From the NCBI GenBank assembly GCA_000002445.1, contig AL929603.2:608001-672000 (forward strand): 64,000 nucleotides of DNA, in the 5' to 3' direction. Shown here piece by piece: positions 9,850 through 39,235 of this stretch. The DNA comes from Trypanosoma brucei. Taxonomy: Eukaryota. The position numbers were made by a program, and so were the translations under genes. Every line of letters starts with the position of its first letter. The stretch's first letter is position 1. Under the pieces are notes generated by a model. It saw only the letters and a list, made by a program, of their open reading frames with translations, was not told the DNA's origin and did not search any database.

Positions 9850-9874
9850 CCCTCCCCTCCCCTCCCCTCCCCCC
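9850..9874 (-). other. C-rich tract (cctcccctcccctcccctcccccc) giving a G4-capable motif on the - strand
   Basis: Read directly. It mirrors the + strand G4 motif at 6973-6992. Confidence 0.5.
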
Positions 9875-10770: not shown

Positions 10771-10928
10771 ATAAAAGAAAGTGAGAAGGGAAAAGAAAAA
10801 AAGGTAAGAAGTGAGAAAGAAAGATAGATAGAAAAGGTTGGGGAGAAAGGGCGGAAGATTCTTCTTTTCCCTTTTTATCTAAGAGCAGGAAAAAGAATTT
10901 TTAAAAAAAAAAAAACTATCACATCACA

Positions 10929-12470: not shown

Positions 12471-12533
12471 AGTTGTAAGCGCAACCATTTCCCATGCTGG
12501 GGGAAGGAGAGAGAAAAAGAAAGGAGGGATTTG

Positions 12534-12539
<6 letters not shown>

Positions 12540-12574
<35 letters not shown>

Positions 12575-12582
12575 TTCCCCTC
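12540..12582. repeat. (TA)n followed by (TG)n microsatellite
   Basis: atatatatatatat gtgtgtgtgtgtgtgtgtgtg read directly just 3' of PF16. Confidence 0.9.
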
Positions 12583-18841: not shown

Positions 18842-19244
18842 TAACATGAAGTCATGATGCATGTGAGTTAAGAGGAATCGGGTGGAGAGATAAAATGCGT
18901 GTGTGCGTTACATTTCCTCGCAACTATTCCGATCCTCACGCAGCAGTTGCAGCATCCTTCCTACCTCCTCTCTCTTTTTTTTTGTACTCATGGTTTAGTT
19001 TCCTTTATATAATACTGCACATGGTTGTCGTGCGGTGTTGTTTCGTTTGTTTGTTTGTTTTCTGTTTATTATTATATATGTATGTTTGGGCGTGTTGTTG
19101 TTGTTGTTGTTGTTGTTTTTCTTTCATTTTCAATCCTCTCACACAAATTTACACCAATCGGTTGCAGACGCCAGTGACCCTGTGCCAAAAGACAAATATA
19201 AATTAAAATATGAAAACCTGACAGCGTGGCGCAACATCGGGCGC

Positions 19245-19279
<35 letters not shown>

Positions 19280-21938: not shown

Positions 21939-23268
21939 TATTGGAAAAAAAACAAACAAACAAAAAAGGAAAAAGGAAAAAGGAAATGAAAAAGAAAAAA
22001 GAATAACAGGAAGAGGAAGAAGAAAAAAAAGGGTAGAAAGGATTAGGATAAGGATAAGGAGCAAACAAACATACAAACAAGCAAGCAATGTAAATATTAT
22101 AGTTGAAAAGTTTAGATAAATAGAATGGAGTGAGGTTGAGGGAATTTGTGGTGTACAGTAATTAAAAGAAAGAGGAGGTGTACGGTTTTGTGAAGCAGAG
22201 GGGGGAAAACGGAAAATTAAAAAAAAAAGAGGTGAGATGTTTCATGTAAGCCGCGGCTGTGCGGCTCTTGTCGTACATTCACCCACCTATTCGTTGATGA
22301 TGCTGCTATTGTTTGTTTTGTTGTTGTTTTGCTTTATTTTTTATTGTTATTATATTATTATTTTTATATTTATTTTTTTTTGACGAGTACGCCGCCCCTT
22401 TTTTTTGTGTGTGTGATCGTCATCTTTTCCCTCTCCACTGAAAGAAAAAAAAACCATAGGCGCTTTCGCCTCGCGATGGCGTTTCTCTTCCATAGAAGCA
22501 CCACAGCAGATATTGTTTATTCCATTTATTTACCAACAGTCGTCTTGTTTTGTTTTGTTTTGTTTTTCTTTTCCTTTTCCTTTTTTTTTACAAAAAAGAA
22601 AAGTTTTGTTTTATTTTGCCACGTTTTAGATCTTCTATAGAAAAGAACAGAAAAAATTTTTTAATATATAAACATATATACATCCTTACTAAAATAAAAA
22701 TGCGTAACTGATTGAATGGTTATGATGGTAAGGGACTTTTAGGAACTGAATCGTTGCCTCCTGTGGGCGGCCGGTTAGTCCGGTTGTTTTTTTCCGCCAT
22801 TTGCGTATCATGAGAGGAAATGACGGCAATTCGTCGCGGATCCCCACAGGCGCTTTTGTTACTTTGGCTGAATGAAGCTACTATTACTATTATTGTTATT
22901 GTTATTGTTGCCTTTTATGTTTTTTTTTGTTTTTTAATATCTTGTTTTGTTGTTGTTTTTGGGTTCGGCATCCTTTTTTTCTCACCTTCTTCCCCTCCTC
23001 CCTTCCTCTTATATCCTCCTATACATCTAAAAATAAAAATAAAATAAATAATAGCAGAGGTGGAGAATAAAAGGGAAAGTGAACAAAGTAGAGAAGGAGC
23101 ACCGAGACAAGTGTGCGTCATCACGTGGCGTTTAGAGTTTACGGAAAGATTTACATACATGCCAGTCAGCAAAGGCGGTTTGAGTACTAAAAGGTGTGTG
23201 TTCATACATCCTTGTACTTTCCTCACATCTATATATATATATATATATATCTGTAGATATATATAAAT

Positions 23269-24888
23269 ATGCAAATGATGGGACGGGCCACAATGCATTT
23301 GCGCTCTGCTGCATCCTCTCTAGTTAGCAGGGCGCGACTCATCCCCAGCAGTTTCTTATGGCCTTGTTTAATACTCACGAAAGAATCGCTCCACGTGGGT
23401 GTTATTGCTTATCGCACATTTATCCATTCCCGCGTGCGGCTCGTGCTGCGGACCGCTGTTGGAGTACCCATCGCCTCCGTCTCGCTTTATCTTTCTTATG
23501 CCCTTTTCGCCTGGTATCCGGAGCCAACAGCTGCAGTGAGTACCGATTCCGTTGCTGACAGGCCGCTGTTGCGATGCACAAGTGATTTGCTTGAGTTTGG
23601 CCGCAGTTGTGCTGGTCGCTACCATCGTATCGAAAGCAACAGTACCGCAGGAATGACGGGTTGGGGAAGGAAACTCCCCGAGTCGGAAAGAAATGAAGTA
23701 GTGGGCGATGTGCTTTACATTCTGCGGTGTATAGAGGCCATTAGAGGAACCTTTGAGGAGCGGCAACTTGTAACACCTCGTGCGGATCATGGTGCCGCGT
23801 GTCCTGCGGAAGAACTGCTGCGGATTGTTTTGGCCATCTCCCTCGATCAGGAATGGTTTGATATTGTGGAGGCCGCTCGCGAGATGTTTGAGCAAGTCGT
23901 CAGGGACCGGCCGGTGCCTGTGCAGGCAAATGTGACCAGCGCTATTGCTGACCTTTGCGCACTTTCCTACGAACTGGAGCATTGCACGGACTCATCAGAG
24001 GTGACTGTAACCCAGCGGCAACGTGTGGCACGGGCTGTTGATTCCTTTCGTCCGGAAAAGTCTGTGCGGGAACTGTGCACCATCGCAGCTGAGATCGCCG
24101 TGCTTCCGCTCGTGGACCTTGACGAAACCACGCGTTGCCTCATGTTGACGCGAAATAGCCCGGGCTACCGTCCACAGCTTATCATAACATTCATTGGCAC
24201 GAATAGCTGGCGGAGTTGGTTGACAAACTTAAGATATTGGCCGAGAGCGCCTCCTGCTGGATTGTTCGGCACTCAACTTCGTGTTCACGCGGGCTTCTTG
24301 GAAATGTTGCAATCCATTCATTTCGCTGAGGCTGCGGAGGACTTTGATCAAATCATTCTCATTGGACACAGCATGGGTGGTGCTCTGGCGCAACTTGCTG
24401 GAGTGTGTCTTGCCAATGGTAAGTCGTCTCGTCGTGTCACAGTGCTGACAGTCGCGTCTCCCCGCGTATTTGCGGTTCGGCACGGCACTTTATGGCCCTT
24501 AAGGAGTTGGCTAAGTGGAACAGAACTGACAAAAAATGAGAAGGTTGTGATTGCAGGTGCTGAGGAAGGGAGGGAAATTGATGATGAAAAGAATCAACAT
24601 GTGCAATACAGCGACTGTGAGGCAGACGTGTCGCGGGCTCTCCCCGAAAACTACCGCCATATTCGAGTTTTTATGTATGCCGATGTGGTGCCGAAACTCC
24701 CCCCGGTGTTTCTGGGTTACCACCACGTCGGGACGCCGCTGCCGTTGCACACGGGTTGCCCGACACGCAAGTCATTTGTTGGTTGGGGACTGTGGTCCCA
24801 ATGTTTCCACAGTGCAGAAATGTATAAAGCCGTGCTTGAGCGGCCCGTCGTGGCGCAGCGGCAGCGGTATTACAAATCCTTATCATAA
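23269..24888 (+). CDS. class 3 (fungal-type) lipase-like alpha/beta hydrolase, 539 aa
   Basis: Nucleophile elbow 'IILIGHSMGGALAQLAGVCL' (GHSxG) preceded by 'LRVHAGFLEMLQS' is the canonical Lipase_3 arrangement. The N-terminus is hydrophobic/R-rich (possible targeting peptide). Confidence 0.7.
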   Translation: MQMMGRATMHLRSAASSLVSRARLIPSSFLWPCLILTKESLHVGVIAYRTFIHSRVRLVLRTAVGVPIASVSLYLSYALFAWYPEPTAAVSTDSVADRPLLRCTSDLLEFGRSCAGRYHRIESNSTAGMTGWGRKLPESERNEVVGDVLYILRCIEAIRGTFEERQLVTPRADHGAACPAEELLRIVLAISLDQEWFDIVEAAREMFEQVVRDRPVPVQANVTSAIADLCALSYELEHCTDSSEVTVTQRQRVARAVDSFRPEKSVRELCTIAAEIAVLPLVDLDETTRCLMLTRNSPGYRPQLIITFIGTNSWRSWLTNLRYWPRAPPAGLFGTQLRVHAGFLEMLQSIHFAEAAEDFDQIILIGHSMGGALAQLAGVCLANGKSSRRVTVLTVASPRVFAVRHGTLWPLRSWLSGTELTKNEKVVIAGAEEGREIDDEKNQHVQYSDCEADVSRALPENYRHIRVFMYADVVPKLPPVFLGYHHVGTPLPLHTGCPTRKSFVGWGLWSQCFHSAEMYKAVLERPVVAQRQRYYKSLS

Positions 24889-25364
24889 ATATGTGTTGCT
24901 CATGCGCAGCCCAAAACACGCATACGGTTACATATATATATTTATATATTTATATGTTCACGCCTATGCCAGTGTCTATGTGTATGTGTATTGCTGAGGT
25001 GCGATAGACAGCTCAAACGGGGTACCTTCCACCGTTGTTGATTATATATTTCTACTGTTTGAACGCTTGGAAAAATATTTTATTTCATTTCATGTACGTC
25101 ACCCGCCTTCCTTTGTCATGTTTTGGTGCTCTTGAAGGCTGGTAATCACCCCTTTCTTTTACATATTTTTCCTCGCTGACTAAATGTCAATAGTGGAAGG
25201 CGCAGCGCGTGCACTAATAGTAAAGGGAGAAGAGAAAGCAAAGAGAATAAATTCTGTCGCGCGAGTGAAACAGACGAGAAGGAAAACGAAAAGCGAAAGA
25301 GTATAGGCAGGCAGAAGGGGGGGAGAGAAGGAAGGATACAAAAAAAAAGGAAAAAGGAAGAGTC

Positions 25365-25871
25365 ATGGAGTCAGGGAAGAATGCTCACCGCCTGAACCGC
25401 ATCTTCCGCAAGCCCAAGACGATGGTGGCCCCACGTGCCTGGCGCCCAGCGGCAGATGGAGAAGGCGAACGGCAGCAGCCTTTCAGCGGTGTTTCGCTTC
25501 AACGGATAAACGCCATGATCAGCGAACTCTCCGAAGAGGAGCGAACTCGGGCGTTGGCCCAACAGGATCCCCCAACAGTCGTACAAGAGGAACTCGCCAA
25601 ACGGGCGGCGCGATTTGGCCTCACAATAGAGCGAGCAGACGCGGGCAACAATGAAAAGACGGCCTCGAGTGAAATTACACCAGAGGTGCAGGCGGTGTTT
25701 CAGAGACGCATGGAGCGATTTGGGCAGTCCGCGGCGGAGGAAGCCATGCAAAAACGCGTGGCTCGGTTTGGTAATGCAGCCACGTCTGCTGAAGGCCCCG
25801 GAGTGGAGCTGAAGTTGTCGGAAGCGGATCGTGAGGCAATGCAGCGCAGGCAGAGCCGCTTTGGGGGCTAA
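25365..25871 (+). CDS. small basic/acidic protein with four R-x-x-RFG repeats; SARNP/Tho1-like (possible mRNA export/TREX-associated factor), 168 aa
   Basis: Translation repeats: 'AKRAARFGLT', 'QRRMERFGQS', 'QKRVARFGNA', 'QRRQSRFGG*'. RxxRFG repeats are the hallmark of Tho1/SARNP C-terminal regions (from memory). A long antisense ORF (25371-25883) fully overlaps, so the strand choice rests on the repeat logic and synteny with neighbouring + strand genes. Confidence 0.45.
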   Translation: MESGKNAHRLNRIFRKPKTMVAPRAWRPAADGEGERQQPFSGVSLQRINAMISELSEEERTRALAQQDPPTVVQEELAKRAARFGLTIERADAGNNEKTASSEITPEVQAVFQRRMERFGQSAAEEAMQKRVARFGNAATSAEGPGVELKLSEADREAMQRRQSRFGG

Positions 25872-26815
25872 GGCGGCTAACAATCTCTAGAGGCAGGCCG
25901 ACTTACGCAACTGGGCGTCTCTTTTGGTGGTGTTGTGTGTTTGGTGGGGATAACTTTTGGTGGTGCTTTGTTTTGTTTTTGTTTTTGTTTTCTTTTTTTG
26001 GGAGCACTTTTGCTATTGTTACCCTCAATGTTCCTTTTTTTGTTTTTTTCTTCATTCGTTTCGTATACAAGCACACAGCGTTGTAGCTATTTCCGCCCGT
26101 CGTCACATAATTATGTGGGTTTCCATCTACCGATGTGGGGCCCGCGCGACTTTACCGCAGGCACAGAGAGGGAAAGAGGATGAGGAAGGCTTTGAGGCGG
26201 AGGTGGTAAAAGTTAAAGAGGATTAAGAGGAAGGAATCGGGAGGGAAAAAAGAGGGGGAAAGTGAAGCGGTGACGTAAGGGGAGAGATGACCCTGCACGT
26301 GCTTTGGCTGGTCGACTAATTGGGTTGGAGGGAAGAGGAATTAGGAAGAAAAGGGTAAGGAAAGAGGATATACATGCACGAACCGTCTGGGAAGTGTGGC
26401 GCCTAATTATTTATTTTTAACCCATCCCCATTTCTTGTTGTCTTCTCAGTGGTTCTTAATTTTTATAACTCCCCTACGCACTGTGAAAGCACTCACATCC
26501 TTCTCCCCTCCCCCCTCATATCAGTTGCCCTTTTTGTGCTTTTGGCATCACATGTCATGGTGCATATGTTCATCATATCCTCCGAGTCCGCCTGCGCGGG
26601 TCCACTTAACGCATCTGTAACATAAAAAGCATATAAACACACGGGCACAAACAACGTGTATTCCATGCGCGGGAATGCAGCCGGCACCCCCATGTCCCAC
26701 TGCTGTCGTGGAGACACAAACAAACGAGCGTCTCCCATTATTTTTGTTTTTGTTTTTGTTTTTGTTTTGCTCTTTACTTACCATCGAGCGAAGCAAAAAG
26801 TAACAGACAGTAGAA

Positions 26816-28027
26816 ATGTCGGTCAGTTCCCCGCTCGCCAGCAGCGGTGAGAGGGAGCAATATGGCCCGCAGGAACAGCGGCAATATGGATTCGTTCCCG
26901 TTCAAATGACAAATTTAGTTCCCGTACGCGTGGTCAGTGTGCACGGCGACTTTTTCGATATGGAAATACATCAGGACGCACCGCTGCATATAGTTCAGAG
27001 AGCAGCTGAGGACTGCTTTAAGGTCCGCCCTGAGTTGCAGTTACTGACGCACAACCGGAAGCCAATAAACCCCAATCAGTCTCTGAGGCGCAATGGTTGT
27101 CTGCTATTGAAAGGCGATCCGTTTGTCAAAATTGTGCTTGATGTGAAGAAGGGGTCAAGGCTAAACATTGTCTGCCAAATGGCCCACTGCGAACCCATAC
27201 CGCTCGCTTGCGAGGCTGAAGACACGATTTGGGATGTCAAAAAGAAGTTCTGCTCATCTTTAGAAAAGTCGGAGGTCACACCGCAGCGCATTCGCCTGTT
27301 GTGGCGCTACTGGGAGCTGAACGATAAGGCCACAGTTGACTATTACCACATCCCCACCAATTCAAAACTGACTGTGATGAAGAAACGGGACATCTTAGGG
27401 GGACAACAAACAGAAAGACGCAGGGCGCCCTCACAGAGACGGAGACAAGATGTCCAGAGACGTCACGAACGCTGCGACGCCGATACCGATGATGTGGCAG
27501 CGTGGCCGAAAGCACCATCAGTTGTTCCACCATACGAAAAGTATAGACAAGCATCCGGCCGTGAACCGCTGGAAGGCGAAGATAATCGCTCAAAAACGCC
27601 AAATGCGAATGGTAGCGCCCAAGTGGTGGAAGGTGGGGCGGATCGGGACAGCCATCATCCCCCAATTCGGGCGTGGCCCGCCTTGCCCCAAGAGCAATTT
27701 GGCCGGGCTGTAATTCCTCTTTATCCGATAGTCCCGCCCCTCTCCGGAGGAAGTTATTATAGAGAGCCTCGCGCACAAACGCCCGACAGGCGACCCGCCG
27801 TAGTGCCGGTGGCAGAGGCAACACAAGTTGTGGATTTTACCGAGGTTCAACGCCTGAGGATGGAGGTGGAGGAGTTAGGACGGCGTATGGAGACCTGCGT
27901 CACAGATCGGGCGGAGTTTTCGGCGATGGAGGAATCATTCCGCGCCGCTGTGACGCGAGTGTCGGAATTGGAGGCATCCGTTGGCCGGGTTCAGAACCTA
28001 CTGAAACGAGCGCTTCACTTGATGTGA
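26816..28027 (+). CDS. hypothetical protein with ubiquitin-like fold segment(s) and a C-terminal coiled coil, 403 aa
   Basis: 'EDTIWDVKKKFCSSLEKSEVTPQRIRLLWRYWELNDKATVDYYHIPTNSKLTVM' has the beta-grasp/ubiquitin-like pattern. The C-terminal 'QRLRMEVEELGRRMETCV...VSELEASVGRVQNLLKRAL' is heptad-like. This is the last + strand gene before the strand switch. Confidence 0.5.
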   Translation: MSVSSPLASSGEREQYGPQEQRQYGFVPVQMTNLVPVRVVSVHGDFFDMEIHQDAPLHIVQRAAEDCFKVRPELQLLTHNRKPINPNQSLRRNGCLLLKGDPFVKIVLDVKKGSRLNIVCQMAHCEPIPLACEAEDTIWDVKKKFCSSLEKSEVTPQRIRLLWRYWELNDKATVDYYHIPTNSKLTVMKKRDILGGQQTERRRAPSQRRRQDVQRRHERCDADTDDVAAWPKAPSVVPPYEKYRQASGREPLEGEDNRSKTPNANGSAQVVEGGADRDSHHPPIRAWPALPQEQFGRAVIPLYPIVPPLSGGSYYREPRAQTPDRRPAVVPVAEATQVVDFTEVQRLRMEVEELGRRMETCVTDRAEFSAMEESFRAAVTRVSELEASVGRVQNLLKRALHLM

Positions 28028-28504
28028 AGAGGGTATAACACGGTGTGTGGGTCTTGTGTTTTTCGTGGTGGGAGCACTGTGTTTGTAATGTGTATATTCC
28101 TGTTTCGTCACGTGTGTTTTACACGGAGATGAAGGAAGCATGACGCTGCGACTCTGCAAGTTTTGCTTAAGAGCACATATCACACACTCGAGGGTGTTGT
28201 GGGTCTGAGCGATTGAAGGGAGGGGAATAAAGTGGAGGGCAGCGGTCAGTCACGCTGCACGAGATCCCTGTTTCTCACATTCCTCTTCATCTGTGCCGTT
28301 CTTTCACTTCTGTCACCGACGGCCGCCGTTTGCCCATACCCCCCCCCCTCCCAATCCCTTTATTGTCCCTTCCTGAATATTACCAAACGCTGTGAAGCGG
28401 CGATTAGGATAGTAATACATGGTGTTGGATGATTGTACATCTGGGACTGGATCTCGAGTATCAGTTGTTCTACAGGTTTAGTGCATGTCGGACACGTAAA
28501 TGCG

Positions 28505-28508
<4 letters not shown>

Positions 28509-28540
<32 letters not shown>
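28509..28540. repeat. (CA)n microsatellite
   Basis: cacacacacacacacacacacacacacacacg read directly. Confidence 0.9.
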
Positions 28541-28541
<1 letters not shown>

Positions 28542-29376
28542 CACGGATACACCATTCCATGACGACGGCGGACACGTGACCTCCGTACAACAGGAAAGTG
28601 AATGGTCGGGAACTCGGTCGCTTAAAGTGGAACGACCAAGATGCCGGTGGGGGATGCAGTTAGTTTAAGGGAAAAAAATCTGTTACCGCGTAGGCTCTTC
28701 AGCAGTTAGCTCCGACTGCCCCACAGTTGCCACGCACGCCTGATTGCGGTGCCAGTGTGAACTGGGTTGTCTTTCCGGTGCCAGTAAAGGCAGAGCAAAC
28801 AGCAGTGACTCGCACCCGCTACTGCAAGAGCAAAAACTGGCACGTTTAGGTGACGTTGCGTTGCATCATCTCAAAACATGTTTCCACCACTTGCGGGAAG
28901 GTCCAGCAACCTCAGTTACAAAATTTTGCCGCGCGGCGAACTGGCACGCACACGTACAGCAGGGGTTTTTGCATCTCACCGGTGGAATTTCTGCCCCTCC
29001 ATGAAAGGATAGACAAAAAAAAGGAGGATCTCTCAAATGTCATGGCGCGGAGTCTTATGAGGAAGCGAAAATTAGAGGAAAACGGTTTAGCGAGCCTCTC
29101 CACGGGGACACCGTGCGTATGTTACAAAACAAGCTTTGGCGCGTTTACACACCACCCGCTGTAAGATGGCTATGGAGTGCGGACTTGGGAAAGACGGACT
29201 CACAGAATCCGTAGGAATGGACTGAAGGGAGGGGGGCGATGGAACAGCCAGAAAACAAGTCACAAGCGTGTCAACTTTTACCTAGCGACCCACACTGATT
29301 TCCCTCATCTGCCTTTGAGGTCGGAGCCCGCGAAAGTGATGGATGGGAAACACATCCTTAAGCGAGTAAGGAATAA

Positions 29377-29662
29377 AGAATGTCTCCTGCAGTTTCGGTG
29401 TGTATGGGCGTTTCGTGGCATAAGAGTCAGTTCGCGAATGCCTGTGCGGAAGCCCAACGAATACGACCCTACTACGCAGCTGCCTCAGCGCATGAACTGG
29501 TATCATGGCAACTGCCACGCGGTGGAAGAGGATTAAAGGCCTAAACAATTTGAGAGTGCTTTGTTAATATAAACAACGGGTAAAAATGTGATAACACTTG
29601 GCAGCATGCCATCAGCAGTATCATCCGCACTAATCTGCTGCTGGCCGGTGATGTGGAAGAGA
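29377..29662. repeat. left arm of a 286-bp perfect or near-perfect inverted repeat (partner 31561-31846)
   Basis: The reverse complement of 29377-29662 matches 31561-31846 base for base over every stretch I checked by hand. For example, 'cacttggcagcatgccatcagcagtatcatccgcactaatctgctgctggccggtgatgtggaagag' pairs with 'ctcttccacatcaccggccagcagcagattagtgcggatgatactgctgatggcatgctgccaagtg'. The same 88-aa translation also appears on opposite strands (ORFs 29282-29548 - and 31675-31857 +). Confidence 0.9.
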
Positions 29663-31560
29663 GGGGAAGGCAGGGGGTGTTGTCTCCAGTGAAGGAGAGG
29701 TCCATCACGTTGCTTACCCGATTTGCTTTCGGAAACGTGGCCGCATCTGTGCTTGCTTCCGTCTCGCTCCCTCAGTGGCGAGGGGTCCTTGTCTCTTCCC
29801 TAATGCTACCGCGATGTCTCGAGTTCTGTGCTCTTGCTTGTGGTGCGTTGTGGATTCGCCCCTCGATTTCGTTGTGTGATCACATTCCCGATTTTTGGGT
29901 GGAAGTTGTGTCCTTCTGTCTTTCCGAACTCCGGACGCTTCTCTTCCCTTCTTCAAATGCACTATTGCACTCATTGGGTACAGTTGCCGTGGAGTTACAT
30001 TCGGGTGCCGGACTCTTCGGTGGTTTGTTAATCCACCCTTGGACTTGGGTACAAAAGAACACAGGGCACACTGAAGAGTGTTCTCCGATTCTGTTGTTTG
30101 TTCACTTCCCTCTGGGTTTTCTGTTGTTCCGCGCGGTGGTGCTACACCCGAGTGTGCGGTCTCTCTGTGCCTTGTTTGCCAAGTCTTCGATTTGAAGGTC
30201 CTCTCGCAGATCAAGCAGGGATACATAATAGTATCCGCAGCGGTTTGCGGTGTTTCTGTGTTTGGCGGCGGTTCGGGAGGTGGGAGGGCCAAATTGGAAT
30301 CCTCCTCCATCTCCTCGCGGGAATTCGAGTCGCCGTTTGCCCTGCTCGTATGGCACTCCATGGGTTCGTTGCATGTGTATAGCGCCATTTTGCCGGTCCG
30401 AGCATCGCAGCCCACAAATTGGGCAAACTGTTGGATCGCTTGCACGTGTGGATGTTGGTCTCACACTCACGAGCTCCACTGTCTGGCTTTTTGCCACATT
30501 GCACCACCATTTCCATGTGTTGGGGATATTAGGGTTCAATTTCCTGTCCAACCCACCCGTACGTAGGTGATGCACCCGTGCGGAGTTGAGTGAGTAGGGT
30601 TTATTCCTTTCTGGACAGCGAGGTCTTGAGGTTTGTGTTCTTCCAGTGTCCAGTAAGTGTGGCCCTATGTGTTTGTGGCTTTTCCCTTGTAGTGCGCAGC
30701 AGCCTTTTCGCTGCTGCAACCACATCCGGTATCCATGCAGTTCGCATTTGTGGTTGCTCTGCTGTGTCAGCTTGCTCATTACCCGCTATTCCACAGTGAC
30801 CAAATATGAACTGAATACGAATCCGTCCTCCTTTACTTTGGAGTTGGATGAGTAGTGTCCATATTTAGCGCAGTACTGTGTCCGTAACTGTAAGCGGGCC
30901 CGTGTGCAGAGCTGCTACCATTGACCATGAGTCCGTAAATATCAATAATCGGAAGTTTTGTTTTTCTGCTTTATCGATCTCTTTGGACAGTTGTTTCAGG
31001 CCAATTATTAGGACTACACATTCAGCTCTATAGCTGCATGCAAGTCGTCCCGTTCCTTCGAGCACTTTGTGCAGGAGTTTGCCATTCTTGACGATGAGAG
31101 CTGCCGCTCCTGATTTTCCTCCAGTGTTACAGATCCGTCTGTCCACACTTCGTAGTGTGATAGAACGACAGGGTTATTGCCCTTTTCTTCTAATAACGGC
31201 GCTTTATCCATCTTTCGGATGTCTCACGTTTGAGTTCTTCCTCCGAGTCTCTCTTCACATTCGGGGGAATGGCGTAGTGAAACAGACATCTGTTCGCTGT
31301 ATCCAGAAATATGGACACCACTCTGTGGTGTATGCGGATTCTACCTGAAGTTGTGGGTATTCTTTCTTCACATTAAGTAGAAGTTGACGAACAGGACGAG
31401 TGGGGTTATACACCAGCGTTGAGCTCTCATTTAGGGCACCCCCACTGGATCCGCAGCATAATAGGTAGACTACTCCTCGGAGTGTTGCCTCTTCACGTAA
31501 TCTCTCCTTGAGTTTGCCCAGCGCAGTTCCACCGCGCCCCGCTCAACGACGGGCCAATAT
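29663..31560 (-). mobile_element. degenerate 3' fragment of an ingi/L1Tc-clade non-LTR retroposon (DIRE-like): RNase H domain plus C-terminal C2H2 zinc-finger region, frameshifted
   Basis: - strand ORF 31014-31211 contains 'VWTDGS' (RNase H N-terminal motif). ORF 30865-31146 contains 'LLIFTDSWSMVAAL' (RNase H core). ORFs 30102-30779 and 29714-30445 contain C2H2 fingers: 'VCPICGLRCSDRQNGAIHMQRTHG' and 'YPCLICERTFKSKTWQTRHRETAHSG'. The domains lie in different frames, which indicates decay. Domain order (RNase H then ZF) matches the L1Tc/ingi ORF C-terminus (established knowledge). There is no intact RT or endonuclease. Confidence 0.6.
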
Positions 31561-31846
31561 TCTCTTCCACATCACCGGCCAGCAGCAGATTAGTGCGGAT
31601 GATACTGCTGATGGCATGCTGCCAAGTGTTATCACATTTTTACCCGTTGTTTATATTAACAAAGCACTCTCAAATTGTTTAGGCCTTTAATCCTCTTCCA
31701 CCGCGTGGCAGTTGCCATGATACCAGTTCATGCGCTGAGGCAGCTGCGTAGTAGGGTCGTATTCGTTGGGCTTCCGCACAGGCATTCGCGAACTGACTCT
31801 TATGCCACGAAACGCCCATACACACCGAAACTGCAGGAGACATTCT
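31561..31846. repeat. right arm of the 286-bp inverted repeat; its distal 68 bp (31778-31846) is also the first bases of the transporter tandem-repeat unit
   Basis: See the left-arm entry. 31778 onward ('acaggcattcgcgaactgactcttatgccacgaaacgcc...') recurs at 35773, 39771 and 43774. Confidence 0.9.
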
Positions 31847-33278
31847 GTTGCTGCTAGCCCCACGGTGGATGATGGGCCATCTCACACTCCCACAACTGTG
31901 CCTTAATGTACAACACGGAAAGTACAGCAAGAAGACGCAGCGGCCACCAACTCTTTCGCAACGTTGCGTAACCACGTTGATATCCTCTCGGATCAGCAGA
32001 AAACTTTCGCCCGCTGATTGCCCGACCTACACCTCAACATTGTTATCGGCGGAAGGAAGCACCACCGAGAATCTCAAATATAATCACCGTGGTCCCACCA
32101 CCACTTTCAGCGCTACAGCTTCTAATCCCATCATCTTTCCCAATTAATATCCCCCTTACTCAAATATGCATCCCCCTGGGGCATGCCATCGTAATAGATA
32201 ATATAAACCTTACCCCTCCACATCAGAAATGGAGGCATCATCCAAGTTATATCCCATGTTACAACCCACCCTCCTCATCCTCACAGGACATATCGTTTGT
32301 TATCCAACCAGCAAGAGCGCAATATTCTCTCATGTCCCCCTTTTGTTTCTGGTCAGTCCAACAGTTGCAAAACTAACAAATTTCGACCCCGTATTCTTGT
32401 GGTCGAGGAATGGAACAAAGCATATGCAACGCTCACTGAAAGCGGCATGACGCCACACTAGAGAAACTATACCAGCATCGATAGTAGTCAAACACTGGGT
32501 GGGATAATAACAGCCAACATGTGCATCCAAATAACCCTTTTTCCTCCTATGCAAGCCTAAATCAGCCAACAGAAAACAAGAGGCAGCGCAATGATAACAA
32601 AGGAAGGTTAGGGGGCACCACCTGTACATAACGAGAGCAGCAGCAAGCAACGGTAAAGGAAGGAGGTTGTGATGCTGCCAAATAGTTGGGAGCACTCAAC
32701 AGCAGAAAATAAAACAAGAAAAGGTAAACAAAATGAAACGGTAAGAAAATGAAGAAAATAATAAGTAAGGTGCTCTGGAAGAAAATAAATATAATATGTA
32801 GAGTACAACATTATGACTAAAGAACGAAACTACGAGAAAATAAAACACCATTGACATGGAGGAAAGTTAGACATCAAAAGAAAAGCACCAGCGGCCACAC
32901 AGTGCGAGCACACGGGTAAGCTGAGTTTGCGTCTATTTGCACAATACGTGCTTTGACTTCCAAAGACGGACACAAGTGCGCGCTGATTTCATGAGTGAGG
33001 AACGAAGTGGTGTTGCAGATTTATAACAAAAGTCACAGAGGAGAAATAATAGGGTGGTAATATAAATAAAAGGGTAAGTTACGGCACCGAGAGTGACTTT
33101 TCACAATTTCTTGGAAAGTAGAAATAAAAGGAGCAATGCTCCGTACAACAATGTTGAGGTGCTGATGCAAAGGAAAACAACATATTCATGTATTTGTTAA
33201 GGGAGAAAAGTAATAAGAATTCGTTTTCAATATTATTGCACGGCCCACCTGACATTAGTGCCAACGATACGAGCCGCG

Positions 33279-35237
33279 TCAGGACCTCTTGGGCGCGATC
33301 CCGTTGCCCTCCGCATTGGGTGTCACATCGCTGTCCCCTTCACAGACAGTTTCTTTCCCCTCAGGGGAAACATCAGCCGCCACCTTCCTCACGGGTTTGC
33401 CGTCTCCATCCAACTCCTCGTCCATGCGAGCATCGGGGAGAAGAGTAAAGATGAGAGGGATCTGAATGCACGGTGCCACGAAGCCGGAAATGAGCACAAG
33501 CCACTTTACATTGGCGAAGTCACATGGCACCAGTGTTTTCACAGGCAGAGCATATTCCATTATAACTGACCCAAGGGAACTACCCACCGTGCTACCGAAA
33601 TTGCTCGATGCAGCAAGAATAGCGTACACAGTACTCTCGCTTCCACGAGGACACAACCGTGAAAGAATAATGGTTAACGGCATCCAGTTCATCATCCCGA
33701 TCACAGGAGATATGACGACATCGCAGCAGAAGTAAATCAAGTAGTCACTGACGTATGGCCGGTTCCATCGCATCACTATAATGAAGTCGAAGATGTTGGA
33801 GACGATGAGGAACACCAGTGTCAAGAAGTAAGTCATCCGATAAGTCTTTTTTGAAAGGAAGTAATTGAACAGCACGACACCCAGAGCTGAAGTGACACTT
33901 CCAACTGTTCCACCAACAGTCTGCAGGAAAAAAAGACTGAAGTGAGGTCCACCCGGATTGCAATCGGGTCCGCTCAGGAAGAACGGGGTGACAGCACCAC
34001 CAAAAGACACCGTAGACGCATTGTTCAAGTAACTGAACAGATTCACCTTCGCGACCGCCCACGACAGCGCATAGAAATTGAAAGAGCAGTGCCCCACGGA
34101 AACGACAGCCGCGGCAATGAGTAAATGCAGCCTCGATCCAAACAAGGAGGTTATGGCAACACCAACAACAAAGAATGCTATTAGCACGCTGTATATTGTC
34201 TCACGCTTGTTGCGCTCAAGGACCTCTTCGTTCATCTGGAACACACCGCAGCAGCACTCACGAGGCTCCCTGAACACAAATGGCTTCACAGCTGCCTCAC
34301 CGCCGTCAGCGTTAGGCCCCGCCACCGGCTCGCTGTTTGTCACTTGGCGCTCCACCATCCCACCATTTACGTCAATTGGATCATTGTCATCAGCCACCGG
34401 AGGGGTGTCCTTAGCCTCTTTTAACTTCTGCTCGTGGAGCACATGGGCATCGATGTACCGCTCCTCACGGTTGGGCAGTTCACCAAACCAATTGAACAGG
34501 AAGAATGGTGCCACCAGCAGCTGGACAGCGCTACCTATCATGGGAGATATCTGCGGTATGCCAGCGTCACCCAAAGGACCAACAATAACGGAAACAAAGA
34601 GACCAGCCAGGATAATGAACCACCAAACCCAACTCACCAGAGCAGGCCCTGGACCAGGCACACGGCGCATCATCCGGCTGTATAGTCCCTGCGATAGAAT
34701 GTCCGTACATGCCCTGCTGAGCCCAGAGAAGAAGAGGAACACGGAAGCAATTGCTGCACTCGATGGCTGCGCTGGGAGCAGAGCAAAGCCAAGGGAGAAT
34801 GCGGGACCGACGAGATTCGCCACAAACATGTACCACCGTTTGGTATAACCGAAGAACGGGAATATGTCGCTGATAGCAGCCAAAAGAGGCTTCACAGACC
34901 ACCCCATGCCGGCGATGTTAGTTAGCCGCTGGTAGACAAGACCCTCGACAGTGAAACGGTTCAAAAACATCGCAATAATGGATCCACCAACAAGTCCGTC
35001 AGCAAGACCCTTACACAAGAAATACGATAATCCAATGGAAAGCACGGGCTTAGGACCATAGCCCTCAGCTGCCTCCCCGAACAAGGGGATGTGCCGAAGA
35101 CACGGAACCTTGTTGAACAGGGCCCGTGCCTCGGGGTGCACAAACGTTGCCTCCTTAGATTCCTCACTGTGTAGCTCAGCGACGAGTACGGCATCACCAC
35201 CCCGCGCATCGAACGAACCATCTTCCTGTCGACCCAT
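33279..35237 (-). CDS. folate/biopterin (pteridine) transporter, BT1/FBT family, 652 aa (array copy 1, promoter-distal)
   Basis: Polytopic membrane protein with about 12 hydrophobic segments. The N-terminal 'PLFGEAAEGYGPKPVLSIGLSYFLCKGLADGLVGGSIIAMFL' matches the conserved BT1-family N-terminal motif of Leishmania/Trypanosoma pteridine and folate transporters. There is a long cytosolic loop between TM6 and TM7 (from memory). Confidence 0.85.
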   Translation of the reverse strand: MGRQEDGSFDARGGDAVLVAELHSEESKEATFVHPEARALFNKVPCLRHIPLFGEAAEGYGPKPVLSIGLSYFLCKGLADGLVGGSIIAMFLNRFTVEGLVYQRLTNIAGMGWSVKPLLAAISDIFPFFGYTKRWYMFVANLVGPAFSLGFALLPAQPSSAAIASVFLFFSGLSRACTDILSQGLYSRMMRRVPGPGPALVSWVWWFIILAGLFVSVIVGPLGDAGIPQISPMIGSAVQLLVAPFFLFNWFGELPNREERYIDAHVLHEQKLKEAKDTPPVADDNDPIDVNGGMVERQVTNSEPVAGPNADGGEAAVKPFVFREPRECCCGVFQMNEEVLERNKRETIYSVLIAFFVVGVAITSLFGSRLHLLIAAAVVSVGHCSFNFYALSWAVAKVNLFSYLNNASTVSFGGAVTPFFLSGPDCNPGGPHFSLFFLQTVGGTVGSVTSALGVVLFNYFLSKKTYRMTYFLTLVFLIVSNIFDFIIVMRWNRPYVSDYLIYFCCDVVISPVIGMMNWMPLTIILSRLCPRGSESTVYAILAASSNFGSTVGSSLGSVIMEYALPVKTLVPCDFANVKWLVLISGFVAPCIQIPLIFTLLPDARMDEELDGDGKPVRKVAADVSPEGKETVCEGDSDVTPNAEGNGIAPKRS

Positions 35238-37276
35238 CGTCAGCTTTTATGACCAATGCTTAGCTAACATTCACGAGCCACACACAAAACAATACGAAAA
35301 ACAAAGAGGTGAGAAGATATGTTGAGGAATCAAATAATAAAAGAAACGCACACACGAACCACAGGGCACCAACGTTTCAACAACACCGTGCCTCAGCATA
35401 ACTATGGCACACCAAAACCTCGCACACACAAATACACAAACACGTACTTGCGCATCGGGACATCAACCAACTCTGCGAAGTTAACATTAGAGTCGATTTC
35501 CACAGCCCCTTCCTGTCTCCAGAGGGTCCTTACAGCAACCATGATTAAACGACAAAGCGTCCCTCCACAGATATAGGGAAAATTAGGTAAATATCTGCAG
35601 TAGTCCATTTATAGCACGTTCATTCTTCACATGTCAGTTAGTGGGGGAAAGGTAACATGTACGTGACGGCCGGTCCTATTATCAAGAAGTAATAGAAAAG
35701 GCACTACATACGCGTAGCCACACAACTCATGATGTGAGGATATGCAACAACACTATGATTAGCAAAAATGATACAGGCATTCGCGAACTGACTCTTATGC
35801 CACGAAACGCCCATACACACCGAAACTGCAGGAGACATTCTGTTGCTGCTAGCCCCACGGTGGATGATGGGCCATCTCACACTCCCACAACTGTGCCTTA
35901 ATGTACAACACGGAAAGTACAGCAAGAAGACGCAGCGGCCACCAACTCTTTCGCAACGTTGCGTAACCACGTTGATATCCTCTCGGATCAGCAGAAAACT
36001 TTCGCCCGCTGATTGCCCGACCTACACCTCAACATTGTTATCGGCGGAAGGAAGCACCACCGAGAATCTCAAATATAATCACCGTGGTCCCACCACCACT
36101 TTCAGCGCTACAGCTTCTAATCCCATCATCTTTCCCAATTAATATCCCCCTTACTCAAATATGCATCCCCCTGGGGCATGCCATCGTAATAGATAATATA
36201 AACCTTACCCCTCCACATCAGAAATGGAGGCATCATCCAAGTTATATCCCATGTTACAACCCACCCTCCTCATCCTCACAGGACATATCGTTTGTTATCC
36301 AACCAGCAAGAGCGCAATATTCTCTCATGTCCCCCTTTTGTTTCTGGTCAGTCCAACAGTTGCAAAACTAACAAATTTCGACCCCGTATTCTTGTGGTCG
36401 AGGAATGGAACAAAGCATATGCAACGCTCACTGAAAGCGGCATGACGCCACACTAGAGAAACTATACCAGCATCGATAGTAGTCAAACACTGGGTGGGAT
36501 AATAACAGCCAACATGTGCATCCAAATAACCCTTTTTCCTCCTATGCAAGCCTAAATCAGCCAACAGAAAACAAGAGGCAGCGCAATGATAACAAAGGAA
36601 GGTTAGGGGGCACCACCTGTACATAACGAGAGCAGCAGCAAGCAACGGTAAAGGAAGGAGGTTGTGATGCTGCCAAATAGTTGGGAGCACTCAACAGCAG
36701 AAAATAAAACAAGAAAAGGTAAACAAAATGAAACGGTAAGAAAATGAAGAAAATAATAAGTAAGGTGCTCTGGAAGAAAATAAATATAATATGTAGAGTA
36801 CAACATTATGACTAAAGAACGAAACTACGAGAAAATAAAACACCATTGACATGGAGGAAAGTTAGACATCAAAAGAAAAGCACCAGCGGCCACACAGTGC
36901 GAGCACACGGGTAAGCTGAGTTTGCGTCTATTTGCACAATACGTGCTTTGACTTCCAAAGACGGACACAAGTGCGCGCTGATTTCATGAGTGAGGAACGA
37001 AGTGGTGTTGCAGATTTATAACAAAAGTCACGGAGGAGAAATAATAGGGTGGTAATATAAAAAAATAAAAGGGTAAGTTACGGCACCAAGAGTGACTTTT
37101 CACAATTTCTCGGGAAGGATAAATTAAAAGAACAATGCTCCGTACAACAATGTTGGAGTGCTGATGCAACAAAAACAACATATTCATGCGTTTGTTAAGA
37201 GAGAAAAGTAATAAGAATTCATTTTCAATATTATTGCACGGCCCACCTGACATTAGTGCCAACGATACGAGCCGCG

Positions 37277-39235
37277 TCAGGACCTCTTGGGCGCGATCCC
37301 GTTGCCCTCCGCATTGGGTGTCACATCGCTGTCCCCTTCACAGACAGTTTCTTTCCCCTCAGGGGAAACATCAGCCGCCACCTTCCTCACGGGTTTGCCG
37401 TCTCCATCCAACTCCTCGTCCATGCGAGCATCGGGGAGAAGAGTAAAGATGAGAGGGATCTGAATGCACGGTGCCACGAAGCCGGAAATGAGCACAAGCC
37501 ACTTTACATTGGCGAAGTCACATGGCACCAGTGTTTTCACAGGCAGAGCATATTCCATTATAACTGACCCAAGGGAACTACCCACCGTGCTACCGAAATT
37601 GCTCGATGCAGCAAGAATAGCGTACACAGTACTCTCGCTTCCACGAGGACACAACCGTGAAAGAATAATGGTTAACGGCATCCAGTTCATCATCCCGATC
37701 ACAGGAGATATGACGAGATCGCAGCAGAAGTAAATCAAGTAGTCACTGACGTATGGCCGGTTCCATCGCATCACTATAATGAAGTCGAAGATGTTGGAGA
37801 CGATGAGGAACACCAGTGTCAAGAAGTAAGTCATCCGATAAGTCTTTTTTGAAAGGAAGTAATTGAACAGCACGACACCCAGAGCTGAAGTGACACTTTC
37901 AACTGTTCCACCAACAGTCTGCAGGAAAAAAAGACTGAAGTGAGGTCCACCCGGATTGCAATCGGGTCCGCTCAGGAAGAACGGGGTGACAGCACCACCA
38001 AAAAATAACGTAGACGCATTGTTCAAGTAACTGAACAGATTCACCTTCGCGACCGCCCACGACAGCGCATAGAAATTGAAAGAGCAGTGCCCCACGGAAA
38101 CGACAGCCGCGGCAATGAGTAAATGCAGCCTCGATCCAAACAAGGAGGTTATGGCAACACCAACAACAAAGAATGCTATTAGCACGCTGTATATTGTCTC
38201 ACGCTTGTTGCGCTCAAGGACCTCTTCGTTCATCTGGAACACACCGCAGCAGCACTCACGAGGCTCCCTGAACACAAATGGCTTCACAGCTGCCTCACCG
38301 CCGTCAGCGTTAGGCCCCGCCACCGGCTCGCTGTTTGTCACTTGGCGCTCCACCATCCCACCATTTACGTCAATTGGATCATTGTCATCAGCCACCGGAG
38401 GGGTGTCCTTAGCCTCTTTTAACTTCTGCTCGTGGAGCACATGGGCATCGATGTACCGCTCCTCACGGTTGGGCAGTTCACCAAACCAATTGAACAGGAA
38501 GAATGGTGCCACCAGCAGCTGGACAGCGCTACCTATCATGGGAGATATCTGCGGTATGCCAGCGTCACCCAAAGGACCAACAATAACGGAAACAAAGAGA
38601 CCAGCCAGGATAATGAACCACCAAACCCAACTCACCAGAGCAGGCCCTGGACCAGGCACACGGCGCATCATCCGGCTGTATAGTCCCTGCGATAGAATGT
38701 CCGTACATGCCCTGCTGAGCCCAGAGAAGAAGAGGAACACGGAAGCAATTGCTGCACTCGATGGCTGCGCTGGGAGCAGAGCAAAGCCAAGGGAGAATGC
38801 GGGACCGACGAGATTCGCCACAAACATGTACCACCGTTTGGTATAACCGAAGAACGGGAATATGTCGCTGATAGCAGCCAAAAGAGGCTTCACAGACCAC
38901 CCCATGCCGGCGATGTTAGTTAGCCGCTGGTAGACAAGACCCTCAACACCGAGACGATCCAAAAACATCGCAATAATGGATCCACCAACAAGTCCGTCAG
39001 CAAGACCCTTACACAAGAAATACGATAATCCAATGGAAAGCACGGGCTTAGGACCATAGCCCTCAGCTGCCTCCCCGAACAAGGGGATGTGCCGAAGACA
39101 CGGAACCTTGTTGAACAGAGCCCGTGCCTCGGGGTGCACAAACGTTGCCTCCTTAGATTCCTCACTGTGTAGCTCAGCGACGAGTACGGCATCACCACCC
39201 CGCGCATCGAACGAACCATCTTCCTGTCGACCCAT
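37277..39235 (-). CDS. folate/biopterin (pteridine) transporter, BT1/FBT family, 652 aa (array copy 2)
   Basis: About 99% identical to copy 1. It differs at a few residues, e.g. 'FLDRLGVEGL' versus copy 1 'FLNRFTVEGL', 'NASTLFFGG' versus 'NASTVSFGG', 'GGTVESVTS' versus 'GGTVGSVTS', 'CCDLVIS' versus 'CCDVVIS'. Confidence 0.85.
   Translation of the reverse strand: MGRQEDGSFDARGGDAVLVAELHSEESKEATFVHPEARALFNKVPCLRHIPLFGEAAEGYGPKPVLSIGLSYFLCKGLADGLVGGSIIAMFLDRLGVEGLVYQRLTNIAGMGWSVKPLLAAISDIFPFFGYTKRWYMFVANLVGPAFSLGFALLPAQPSSAAIASVFLFFSGLSRACTDILSQGLYSRMMRRVPGPGPALVSWVWWFIILAGLFVSVIVGPLGDAGIPQISPMIGSAVQLLVAPFFLFNWFGELPNREERYIDAHVLHEQKLKEAKDTPPVADDNDPIDVNGGMVERQVTNSEPVAGPNADGGEAAVKPFVFREPRECCCGVFQMNEEVLERNKRETIYSVLIAFFVVGVAITSLFGSRLHLLIAAAVVSVGHCSFNFYALSWAVAKVNLFSYLNNASTLFFGGAVTPFFLSGPDCNPGGPHFSLFFLQTVGGTVESVTSALGVVLFNYFLSKKTYRMTYFLTLVFLIVSNIFDFIIVMRWNRPYVSDYLIYFCCDLVISPVIGMMNWMPLTIILSRLCPRGSESTVYAILAASSNFGSTVGSSLGSVIMEYALPVKTLVPCDFANVKWLVLISGFVAPCIQIPLIFTLLPDARMDEELDGDGKPVRKVAADVSPEGKETVCEGDSDVTPNAEGNGIAPKRS

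Follow-up and report, generated by a model that had tools for sequence, protein, structure and literature searches.

In a 64,000-nucleotide stretch of Trypanosoma brucei DNA (the window), the two arms of a perfect 286-nt inverted repeat (29377-29662 and 31561-31846, 286/286 positions complementary) enclose a spacer, exactly 29663-31560, whose minus strand carries what is, judged by its sequence, a decayed retroposon relic of the ingi clade and not a cellular RNase H. The relic is recognisable over about 2.0-2.1 kb, from 29663 up to at least 31666, a point beyond the spacer and inside the right arm. The explanation that best accounts for the locus, and that we hold to be very likely, is a DIRE-type element which had lost an internal segment and its 3' end, and onto whose broken 3' end a 286-bp copy of its own front and the adjoining array sequence was later placed in inverted orientation.

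The identity of the element is carried by its RNase H domain. On the minus strand of 29663-31560 this domain is followed by three intact and one degenerate C2H2 fingers, the whole being spread over three frames and broken by stops. The RNase H motifs and the three frames had been pointed out in an earlier note on this DNA, which had however counted two fingers where three are intact. Upon translation, VWTDGS occupies 31148-31131 in one minus-strand frame, while a second minus-strand frame contains IFTDSWSMVAAL (with IFTDS at 30942-30928), SYRAE (31035-31021) and HCGIAGNEQAD (30798-30766); none of the four catalytic RNase H motifs is missing. After repair, the RNase H translation matched the Pfam family PF00075 with E=1e-9 (39.2 bits, the cut-off being 25.8), and the repaired stretch retrieved a 'Tbingi protein' of T. 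grayi with E=1.7e-41 from a library of 5.8 billion proteins, a value which sets the match to ingi-type proteins far beyond chance. The RNase H matches to 'Tbingi protein' entries range from E=1e-41 to 1e-32, at 44% (P0003), 46% (P0004) and 51% (P0005) identity. The closest proteins overall, in libraries and a comparison set without T. brucei proteins or T. brucei ingi, are the 'Tbingi protein' entries of T. grayi and T. theileri with 45-49% identity; the elements of T. vivax and T. congolense (Tvingi/Tcoingi type) and L1Tco come next with 32-36%. A profile search, for which the query was an alignment of the ORFs of the window with their T. grayi matches, yielded 313 matches at E<=1e-10 with trypanosome ingi-type proteins on top, and the nine best named matches that were looked up are retroposon proteins of T. 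theileri, T. grayi, T. vivax, T. congolense and Novymonas. The zf-C2H2 matches in Pfam are weak. A cellular RNase H1 or zinc-finger gene, which the earlier note had named as the finding that would contradict it, was rejected: the ORF is broken, and the close matches are all retroposon proteins (RT plus RNase H, or annotated as Tbingi), the best of them belonging to the ingi clade. The motifs, PF00075 and the Tbingi matches thus bear out the description of a decayed, frameshifted, DIRE-like non-LTR retroposon of the ingi/L1Tc clade with RNase H and a C2H2 tail.

The anatomy of the relic and of the repeat is set out in Table 1. Over about 1.8 kb, the reading frame of the relic changes five times or more and is broken by at least two in-frame stops; with that many frameshifts in addition to several stops, no protein product is possible, and it seems that no activity as a retroposon is left. 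An alignment of P0023, a 'Tbingi protein' of T. theileri, covers 31488-30706 with 39.7% identity (E=1.7e-54, local search). The linker that follows the RNase H domain, interrupted by an in-frame TAA (30601-30603) and a frameshift at about 30545, aligns with ARFRTGVSHRYGW...TCRWC of T. grayi, and the intact finger at 30425-30360 lies in a frame that differs from that of the other two.

Table 1. Segments of the retroposon relic, in minus-strand order, and arms of the inverted repeat (positions in the window)
Feature	Position	Strand	Basis
N-terminal leader and 2A-like ribosome-skipping motif SSIIRTNLLLAGDVEENIGP (31609-31550)	31550..31666	-	alignment to full-length relatives
APE endonuclease start, first 13-20 residues (SLSGARWNCAGQTQGEI), ending at the putative internal deletion junction	31490..31549	-	N-terminal alignments
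Segment between RT and RNase H (GGALNESSTLVYNPTRPVRQLLLNVKKEYPQL...), with three frame changes	31170..31488	-	P0023 alignment
RNase H domain, with a frameshift at about 31125 and an in-frame TAA at 30865-30867	30700..31160	-	PF00075, P0003/P0004/P0005
Post-RNase H linker, with conserved LTQLRTG...YGW motif and degenerate CxWC (TWKWWC)	30500..30603	-	T. grayi alignment
Three intact C2H2 fingers, CX2CX12HX4H	30425-30360, 30217-30152, 30070-30005	-	T. grayi finger array alignment
Degenerate fourth finger (29887-29828), open stretch to the stop at 29714-29716, and 51-nt tail	29663..29887	-	translation
Right arm, original copy; its inner part is the relic leader and 2A codons to ...GDVEE	31561..31846	.	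array homology and reading frame continue
Left arm, derived inverted copy, adjoining the cut 3' end of the relic at 29662/29663	29377..29662	.	cut at both ends

The 5' part of the element was found where none had been expected. The earlier note had regarded the relic as a 3' portion truncated at its 5' end right at the inverted-repeat arm, a view that has to be abandoned, since the frame crosses that boundary into the element's own 2A and endonuclease start (31666-31499). Across 31561/31560 the frame runs ...SSIIRTNLLLAGDVEE/NIGP (the slash marking the boundary of the right arm) and then ARWNCAG, the start of the endonuclease. The 2A-like GDVEENIGP occupies 31576-31550, with the canonical NPGP changed to NIGP (P to I) and an in-frame stop upstream. 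The 2A-like region aligns to the N-termini of at least six full-length relatives, P0087 (E=3.6e-6), P0102, P0091, P0073, P0041 and P0180, and the 2A codons share 76% DNA identity with L1Tco over 37 nt. The motif GD[VI]ExNxGP occurs a single time in the window and in 0 of 200 shuffles. In ingi-clade elements the 2A stands immediately before the endonuclease (PMC3708506), and '(L)RVxQWNxxG' directly follows the 2A in every full-length relative. The 77/79-bp 5' signature (Pr77) was searched for in several ways: nhmmer with ten reference signatures gave no match, a sliding alignment came out at rank 1836 of 31950, and the conserved T. brucei Pr77 core GCCGGCCACCTCAAC is absent at up to three mismatches. 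A decayed Pr77 that seemed visible by eye at two places, CCCT at 31756 and TCCTGCAG at 31838, was rejected, its local alignment to L1Tc scoring 23 against a shuffle mean of 21.5 and the nhmmer, sliding-alignment and core searches being negative. No HDV-like ribozyme or other RNA was detected by Rfam at the locus or in the window, and no tRNAs were found.

Retroposon protein matches at E<=1e-4 are confined to 30104-31488, and a tblastn search with about 170 relatives returned no RT or APE match in the whole 64 kb. Residues 113-138 of P0041 align at 31591-31511 and its residues from about 1104 onward at 31154; P0023 aligns from its residue 3 onward, starting at 31488. On these alignments, the loss of the endonuclease and RT is best read as an internal deletion of about 2.6-2.8 kb at about 31.49 kb (junction about 31500-31480) and not a 5' truncation. 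No other retroposon pieces were found in the window. Where the element does stop at an arm, at 29663, it is its 3' end that is cut: the C-terminal 'ETPxHxLxxCP' domain, which L1Tco keeps along with its poly(A), is missing, the C-terminal ORF of T. grayi has no counterpart in the relic, and there is no A-run at or near 29663. No target-site duplication, which in this clade measures about 12 bp, is recognisable, the true ends of the element being uncertain, and by inspection neither the ingi4 nor the ingi6 insertion motif (PMC3820030) fits the sequence that precedes the two candidate 5' ends. The earlier suggestion that the repeat and the truncation arose in a single rearrangement stays plausible, provided that the truncated end is the 3' one (29663) and not the 5' one; the corrected anatomy, an internal deletion together with a 3' truncation, reverses the inference on which end the rearrangement cut.

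Two other ways of accounting for the joint near 31.49 kb have to be weighed. The relic may be a chimera, in which an ingi/RIME-type 5' fragment came to lie beside the 3' fragment of a different, older DIRE through two events, either nested insertion or recombination; we consider this unlikely. Dispersed copies often recombine with one another, the 2A peptide resembles what we take to be the T. brucei ingi 2A sequences (SSIIRTKMLLSGDVEENPGP), and the 3' part is just 45-49% identical to the best available relatives. Internal-deletion derivatives that keep the 2A and the endonuclease start are nevertheless the norm in this clade (NARTco sequence; RIME/NARTc, PMC3820030), which argues against two separate origins. 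The two pieces moreover have the same orientation and a colinear order and are both decayed, and no second poly(A), target-site duplication or Pr77 was found at the joint. A very unlikely alternative is that nothing but the 3' part of an autonomous element is left, with its 5' truncation exactly at the start of the inverted-repeat arm. Non-LTR insertions most often end up truncated in this way, and the protein matches (E<=1e-4) do stop at 31488, with RT and most of the endonuclease absent; yet a copy of this kind would not keep the extreme N-terminus, whereas the frame ...SSIIRTNLLLAGDVEE/NIGPSLSGARWNCAG across 31561/31560 fits the N-terminal 2A and endonuclease start of full-length relatives, and a chance 2A motif arose in none of the 200 shuffles.

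As the earlier note had it, the locus lies in a convergent strand-switch region. On the plus strand the genes stop at 28027, on the minus strand they begin at 33279, and the cumulative GC skew peaks at 30-31 kb. The relic adjoins the last unit of a three-copy folate-transporter (BT1) array, at a point where synteny breaks as well. That degenerate elements of the ingi type occur at strand-switch regions and breaks of synteny is textbook knowledge of trypanosome genomes. In the position downstream of the orthologous ubiquitin-like gene, T. vivax has an unrelated Tvingi relic, and T. cruzi and T. theileri have GP63 arrays; this neighbourhood marks a site of recurrent rearrangement and insertion. 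The layout of the array in the window is unlike the description given for TREU927.

The internally deleted, 3'-truncated relic was, in our preferred explanation, present before the inverted repeat was made. The outer 69 nt of the right arm (31778-31846) are part of a 139-nt segment, r, that is repeated in every unit of the folate-transporter array, and 31778-32300 is identical to 35773-36295 and to 39771-40293. The left arm contains 69 of the 139 nt of r, and its 2A codons end after DVEE and are followed by the antisense of the relic tail. The right arm is the original, because array homology runs on outside it and the reading frame runs on inside it, and the left arm is the secondary copy, because neither of its ends continues into its natural context. 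A later rearrangement at the DNA level, by template switch or break repair, would have joined to the broken 3' end of the relic an inverted 286-bp copy of its front together with the adjoining array sequence, and the outcome would be a perfect inverted repeat with the body of the relic as its 1.9-kb spacer. The homology of the left flank (27900-29376) to array units that would be expected from a simple insertion into a unit was not found, and no microhomology is visible at the junction 29662/29663.

The outer junction (29376/29377) recurs in a second Trypanozoon assembly, base for base identical over 32 nt in the T. equiperdum contig CZPT02001577.1; this contig ends 32 nt into the left arm, and what it supports is the outer junction only. 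Over the adjacent 1.37 kb the sole difference between the window and T. equiperdum is a microsatellite and, with the strains differing by so little, the perfect identity of the arms is uninformative on age or gene conversion. The exact-match Logan contig of the locus measures 1.5 kb, and exact look-up of the folate-transporter protein and of two spacer ORFs returned no record.

It is highly improbable that the inverted repeat resulted from retrotransposition itself, by twin priming or by template jumping of the RT, and not from a later DNA rearrangement. Twin priming does create inverted segments in LINE insertions, and a layout like that of L1Tco, in which the 2A ends at nt 299, would put the 5' end of the element at about 31848, near the outer end of the arm at 31846. 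The outer 69 nt of the arms, however, match a segment of every folate-transporter array unit and consequently look like host sequence, and they contain no Pr77; from twin priming one would expect target-site duplications and a 3' segment that carries a poly(A), neither of which is present, and a duplicated overlap of 286 nt would be atypical. Most improbable of all is an assembly artefact at a locus with a single 286-bp copy: the arms are 100% identical and the sole other assembly found breaks inside the left arm, but a contig break inside the repeat is expected from a true repeat, the independently assembled T. equiperdum contig has the novel junction between left flank and inverted array segment (32 nt), and essentially identical long inverted repeats are documented in T. 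brucei, two of them verified by PCR (PMC3447711).

As a retroposon relic the feature is routine, and its nearest counterparts are found among known elements. DIREs (PMC3820030; PMC4748587) are likewise vestigial ingi-clade retroposons with frameshifts and stops, immobile, and associated with strand-switch regions and synteny breaks; they are however long (about 5 kb) and carry a 5' signature of 77-79 nt, whereas the relic measures about 2.1 kb, is internally deleted and 3'-truncated, and its signature is undetected. With Tbingi, Tvingi, Tcoingi, L1Tc and L1Tco it shares the domain order of 2A-like peptide, APE start, ... RNase H and C2H2 fingers, but it is devoid of the endonuclease/RT body, of the C-terminal domain and of a poly(A), and has NIGP in place of NPGP. 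In RIME, NARTc and NARTco too, a 5' end and a 3' portion of the parent meet with nothing between them (PMC3820030), and the 5' end of NARTco includes the 2A codons and the endonuclease start; these are elements of 0.26-1.0 kb, multi-copy, with poly(A) and target-site duplications, whereas the 3' portion of the relic is 1.8 kb, decayed and truncated. The repeat, for its part, resembles IR1-IR7 and the convergent units of Tschudi et al. 2012 (PMC3447711) in being a near-perfect inverted repeat with a kilobase-scale spacer under converging Pol II transcription. IR1-IR7 measure 422-10,011 bp against 286 bp here, and the present repeat is absent from their list; it is a perfect inverted repeat below the size so far reported in T. 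brucei, in which the front of a retroposon is combined with folate-transporter array sequence.

The only plausible activity of the locus would appear to be that of a source of hairpin RNA and siRNA. The predicted stem has 286 pairs and -601 kcal/mol on either transcript. Read-through transcription from either of the converging clusters would give an RNA with a perfect 286-bp stem, and this RNA would be diced into Argonaute-bound siRNAs. In T. brucei, AGO1-bound small RNAs are produced by 7/7 long inverted repeats and 49/49 surveyed convergent transcription units, the smallest published siRNA-producing repeat being 422 bp with few reads, and siRNAs at two tested convergent units left mRNA levels unaffected (PMC3447711). 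Segment r is found 1.37-1.5 kb downstream of every TbFT/BT1 stop codon and probably lies inside the FT 3' UTRs, because the next polypyrimidine tract and splice acceptor lie downstream of it. It is tempting to go further and to see in this locus a hairpin-RNA gene, with a stem made in part of host sequence, that regulates a drug-relevant transporter array by endogenous RNAi. We judge such a role distinctly unlikely; if it were true, siRNAs from the stem would match all three FT mRNAs with perfect complementarity, and those from the inner stem would be complementary to the 5' regions of related retroposons. The TbFT1-3 genes determine antifolate uptake (PMC5114424), and the candidate hairpin siRNA source that adjoins them is easily tested.

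The RNase H motifs and C2H2 fingers that had been read on the minus strand in three different frames are confirmed by translation (listed below), and the repaired RNase H translation exceeds the Pfam threshold. Used as a query, the repaired 214-residue sequence matches three T. grayi proteins (44-51% identity, E=1.7e-41 to 4e-32) that bear the labels 'Tbingi protein' or hypothetical. A profile made of the window ORFs and these T. grayi matches was run over 1.84 billion representatives and yielded 1412 hits in total. Names were checked for ten hits, chosen among the best and the longest: a T. theileri 'Tbingi protein', a T. vivax 'reverse transcriptase', a Novymonas 'RNase H', two JGI entries 'ribonuclease HI' and a T. 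congolense IL3000 protein without a name, the remaining looked-up hits, most of the full-length proteins (1200-1700 aa) among them, being nameless as well. In the RNase H region the identity of the relic is highest with the elements of T. grayi and T. theileri (45-49%), and falls to 34-36% with the proteins of T. vivax and T. congolense and to 32% with the published L1Tco. The best matches were not cellular genes, and the ingi/L1Tc-type origin first proposed is borne out; by these alignments, which cover T. grayi, T. theileri, T. vivax and T. congolense proteins and L1Tco, the relic is confirmed as a member of the ingi clade, at clade level.

Coordinates of the relic motifs and of the neighbouring transporter array in the window
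Feature	Position	Strand	Frame	Basis or detail
VWTDGS	31148-31131	minus	first	translation
SYRAE	31035-31021	minus	second	translation
IFTDS	30942-30928	minus	second	translation
HCGIAGNEQAD	30798-30766	minus	second	translation
LTQLRTG linker	30594-30574	minus	second	translation
CX2CX12HX4H finger 1	30425-30360	minus	first	translation
Fingers 2 and 3	30217-30152, 30070-30005	minus	third	translation
Degenerate finger 4	29887-29828	minus	third	translation
Stop	29714-29716	minus	third	translation
BT1/folate-transporter genes	33279-35237, 37277-39235, 41280-43238	minus		652 aa each
Array of three transporter genes	31778-43912			tandem units, 3995-4003 bp
139-nt segment r, four copies	starts 31778 (to 31916), 35773, 39771, 43774			recurs as part of the array unit

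The interval 29663-31560, described in the earlier note as an element 5'-truncated at the arm of an inverted repeat, is the exact spacer between the arms of a perfect 286-nt inverted repeat (left arm 29377-29662, right arm 31561-31846). The truncation was wrongly placed, since the frame crosses the arm boundary: the minus strand reads ...WQHAISSIIRTNLLLAGDVEE/NIGPSLSGARWNCAGQTQGEI across 31561/31560, that is, a -GD(V/I)ExNPGP- 2A signature with one substitution, and then directly the APE endonuclease start 'QWNxxG'. In all ingi-clade elements 2A is reported to stand directly ahead of the APE endonuclease (PMC3708506). A six-frame translation of the window contains this motif a single time, and 200 shuffles contain it in no case; in a small local search the 2A region aligns to the N-terminus of the full-length relative P0087 (E=3.6e-6) and to those of five others (P0102, P0091, P0073, P0041 and P0180), and over 37 nt its 2A codons share 76% identity with the 2A region of L1Tco. 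Inward, homology is next recognised in a segment that precedes RNase H by about 110 residues, residue 3 of the T. theileri 'Tbingi protein' P0023 aligning from 31488, and no similarity to reverse transcriptase or to further endonuclease was found within the 64-kb window. On these grounds, the relic retains its own front, the endonuclease/RT body having been removed by an internal deletion at about 31.49 kb; the loss is estimated at about 2.6-2.8 kb from P0041, in which 2A occupies residues 113-126 and RNase H lies at about residue 1119. The published NARTco has a similar architecture, with Pr77, 2A and endonuclease start joined to the 3' end.

The truncated end of the relic is its 3' end. In the T. 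grayi element the corresponding fingers are followed by additional ones and then by a C-terminal '...LLSCPALKGLR...' domain, and at the 3' end of L1Tco 'ETLHHILHECNEARRIL' precedes a short tail and then poly(A); a counterpart of the T. grayi domain or of the L1Tco end was not found in the window, nor an A-run or a target-site duplication near the 3' end of the relic, where the stop at 29714 is followed by 51 nt and then by the left arm. The 5' truncation is replaced by another reading, that of an internally deleted and 3'-truncated element whose own front was duplicated, inverted, onto the broken tail. On the T. grayi contig JMRU01000872.1, the stretch 28-1062 directly ahead of the ingi-type fragment holds ORFs of another sort (for example '...IDNTTVMHIMQKGNTHSD...NNPADGISR'), which may come from a second retroelement and hint at a nested cluster.

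The right arm passes outward into the array, its last 69 nt (31778-31846) falling inside segment r, and inward the 2A/endonuclease frame continues past the boundary. The left arm holds 69 of the 139 nt of r, no array homology was found in the flank beyond 29376, and its 2A codons stop after DVEE, followed by the antisense of the relic tail. With a break at each of its ends, the left arm is the secondary inverted copy; the right arm, which joins its neighbouring sequence without interruption on either side, is the original. The event is most simply explained by a DNA-level rearrangement, outside retrotransposition, because the left arm includes array-shared sequence; no microhomology was found at the junction 29662/29663. 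Contig CZPT02001577.1 of assembly GCA_001457755.2, which we take to be T. equiperdum OVI, is about 99% identical to window 16785-29408 and has the identical outer junction, ...GGAATAA/AGAATGTCTCCTGCAG..., base for base, which speaks against a single-assembly artefact. This contig ends after the first 32 nt of the left arm (contig 12549-12580, window 29377-29408), as expected if the assembler failed to resolve the repeat. Over the 1.37 kb from the ubiquitin-like (UBL) gene to the arm, the two sequences differ only at a (TG/CA)n microsatellite (28505-28552); with local divergence otherwise nil, the perfect identity of the arms is uninformative on age or gene conversion.

In ingi, RIME, DIRE and SIDER elements the 5' end is defined by a 77-79-nt signature (Pr77/HDV-like ribozyme). 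An HMM of ten signatures (PMC4035085 supplement) found nothing at the locus, a sliding Pr77 alignment ranked its best candidate only 1836th of 31950, an Rfam search gave no match of any kind, and the 15-nt Pr77 core that served to target 470 T. brucei elements (PMC12975129) is absent allowing up to 3 mismatches. The L1Tc Pr77 (PMC8190864 supplement) aligned at the locus no better than to shuffles. The 2A ends at nt 265 in Tvingi and nt 299 in L1Tco, and this spacing puts the 5' end of a complete relic at about 31814-31848, within the array-homologous part of the arm, where the signature was not found. The relic is recognisable to 31666, its true limit lies somewhere between there and the array boundary at 31777, and its first 70-110 nt are probably lost or decayed.

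Plus-strand genes extend up to the UBL gene (403 aa, 26816-28027; identically encoded on the T. equiperdum contig), the minus-strand block 33279-43238 comprises three BT1-family transporters of 652 aa (Pfam PF03092, E=7e-116), almost identical to one another, in ~4 kb units, and gene orientation returns to the plus strand from about 46.6 kb. Since the plus-strand genes end at 28027 and the minus-strand block begins beyond, the relic lies in a convergent strand-switch region; cumulative GC skew in the window reaches its maximum at 30-31 kb, and the sign of the AT skew reverses at about 32 kb. The relic is an ordinary DIRE-type remnant in the expected place, with a small structural twist. The transporter block is the folate-transporter (TbFT1-3) locus known from chromosome 8, with a layout that differs from the array described in TREU927, which shows 96% identity and is interrupted by the unrelated gene Tb927.8.3640 (PMC5114424). 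The array opens and closes with segment r, the pattern expected from unequal crossing-over between flanking repeats. The r piece of the left arm (69 nt, 29377-29445) has the opposite orientation to all four r copies (e.g., 43774-43842), and therefore 29446-43773, with the relic and the three transporter genes, is bracketed by 69-nt perfect inverted repeats. There is a hint here that this minus-strand block, within an otherwise plus-strand region, is now or was formerly invertible.

The UBL gene marks a synteny break. Its next homologues, in libraries without T. brucei proteins, belong to T. congolense, T. conorhini, T. rangeli, T. theileri, T. grayi, T. cruzi and T. vivax. Downstream of it and on its strand, T. 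theileri has DUF423 and GP63 (Peptidase_M8) genes and T. cruzi GP63 genes, with no transporter block beside UBL in either, whereas in the window it is followed by the relic and the oppositely oriented folate-transporter block. Each of these two species has a lineage-specific gene-family array beyond the break. In T. vivax (NLFJ01000187.1), a frameshifted plus-strand Tvingi-type fragment (11840-13544, RT end to RNase H) begins some 750 bp past the UBL orthologue. It differs from the relic in subtype and orientation and, because the relic is only about 35% identical to the Tvingi type, the two seem to have come independently to a single fragile or permissive site. Such an interpretation agrees with the published accumulation of ingi-type elements at strand-switch regions (PMC4748587).

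Without enzymes, promoter signature or intact frame, the relic is inactive as a retroposon. A read-through transcript from either converging cluster would carry both arms, which in one RNA would pair into a perfect 286-bp stem with a 1.9-kb loop (predicted stem energy -601 kcal/mol when a short linker joins the arms). AGO1-bound small RNAs arise in T. brucei from each of seven inverted repeats (422 bp to 10 kb) and from all 49 surveyed convergent units; they mostly require the nuclear Dicer DCL2, and mRNA levels were unchanged at two tested convergent units in DCL2-null cells (PMC3447711). Given this precedent, siRNA production from the relic locus would be rather likely and, given the unchanged mRNA, a biological role for it unlikely. 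Segment r follows every transporter stop codon at a distance of 1.37-1.5 kb and comes before the next polypyrimidine tract and AG (35350-35262), so that the 3' UTRs of the transporters probably include it. That stem-derived siRNAs would match all three transporter mRNAs is one supposition stacked on another, and we regard it as highly improbable. The siRNA-producing repeat IR5 (chromosome 8, 1,048,400-1,059,500; 1,743-bp arms; PMC3447711 Table 3 and supplement) lies, by gene numbering, near the expected place of the folate-transporter genes; no repeat like it was found within the window. Window 4001-11000, between plus-strand ORFs, has a G+C of 0.27-0.39 against about 0.5 elsewhere and is rich in T-rich and (TA)n/(TG)n simple repeats.
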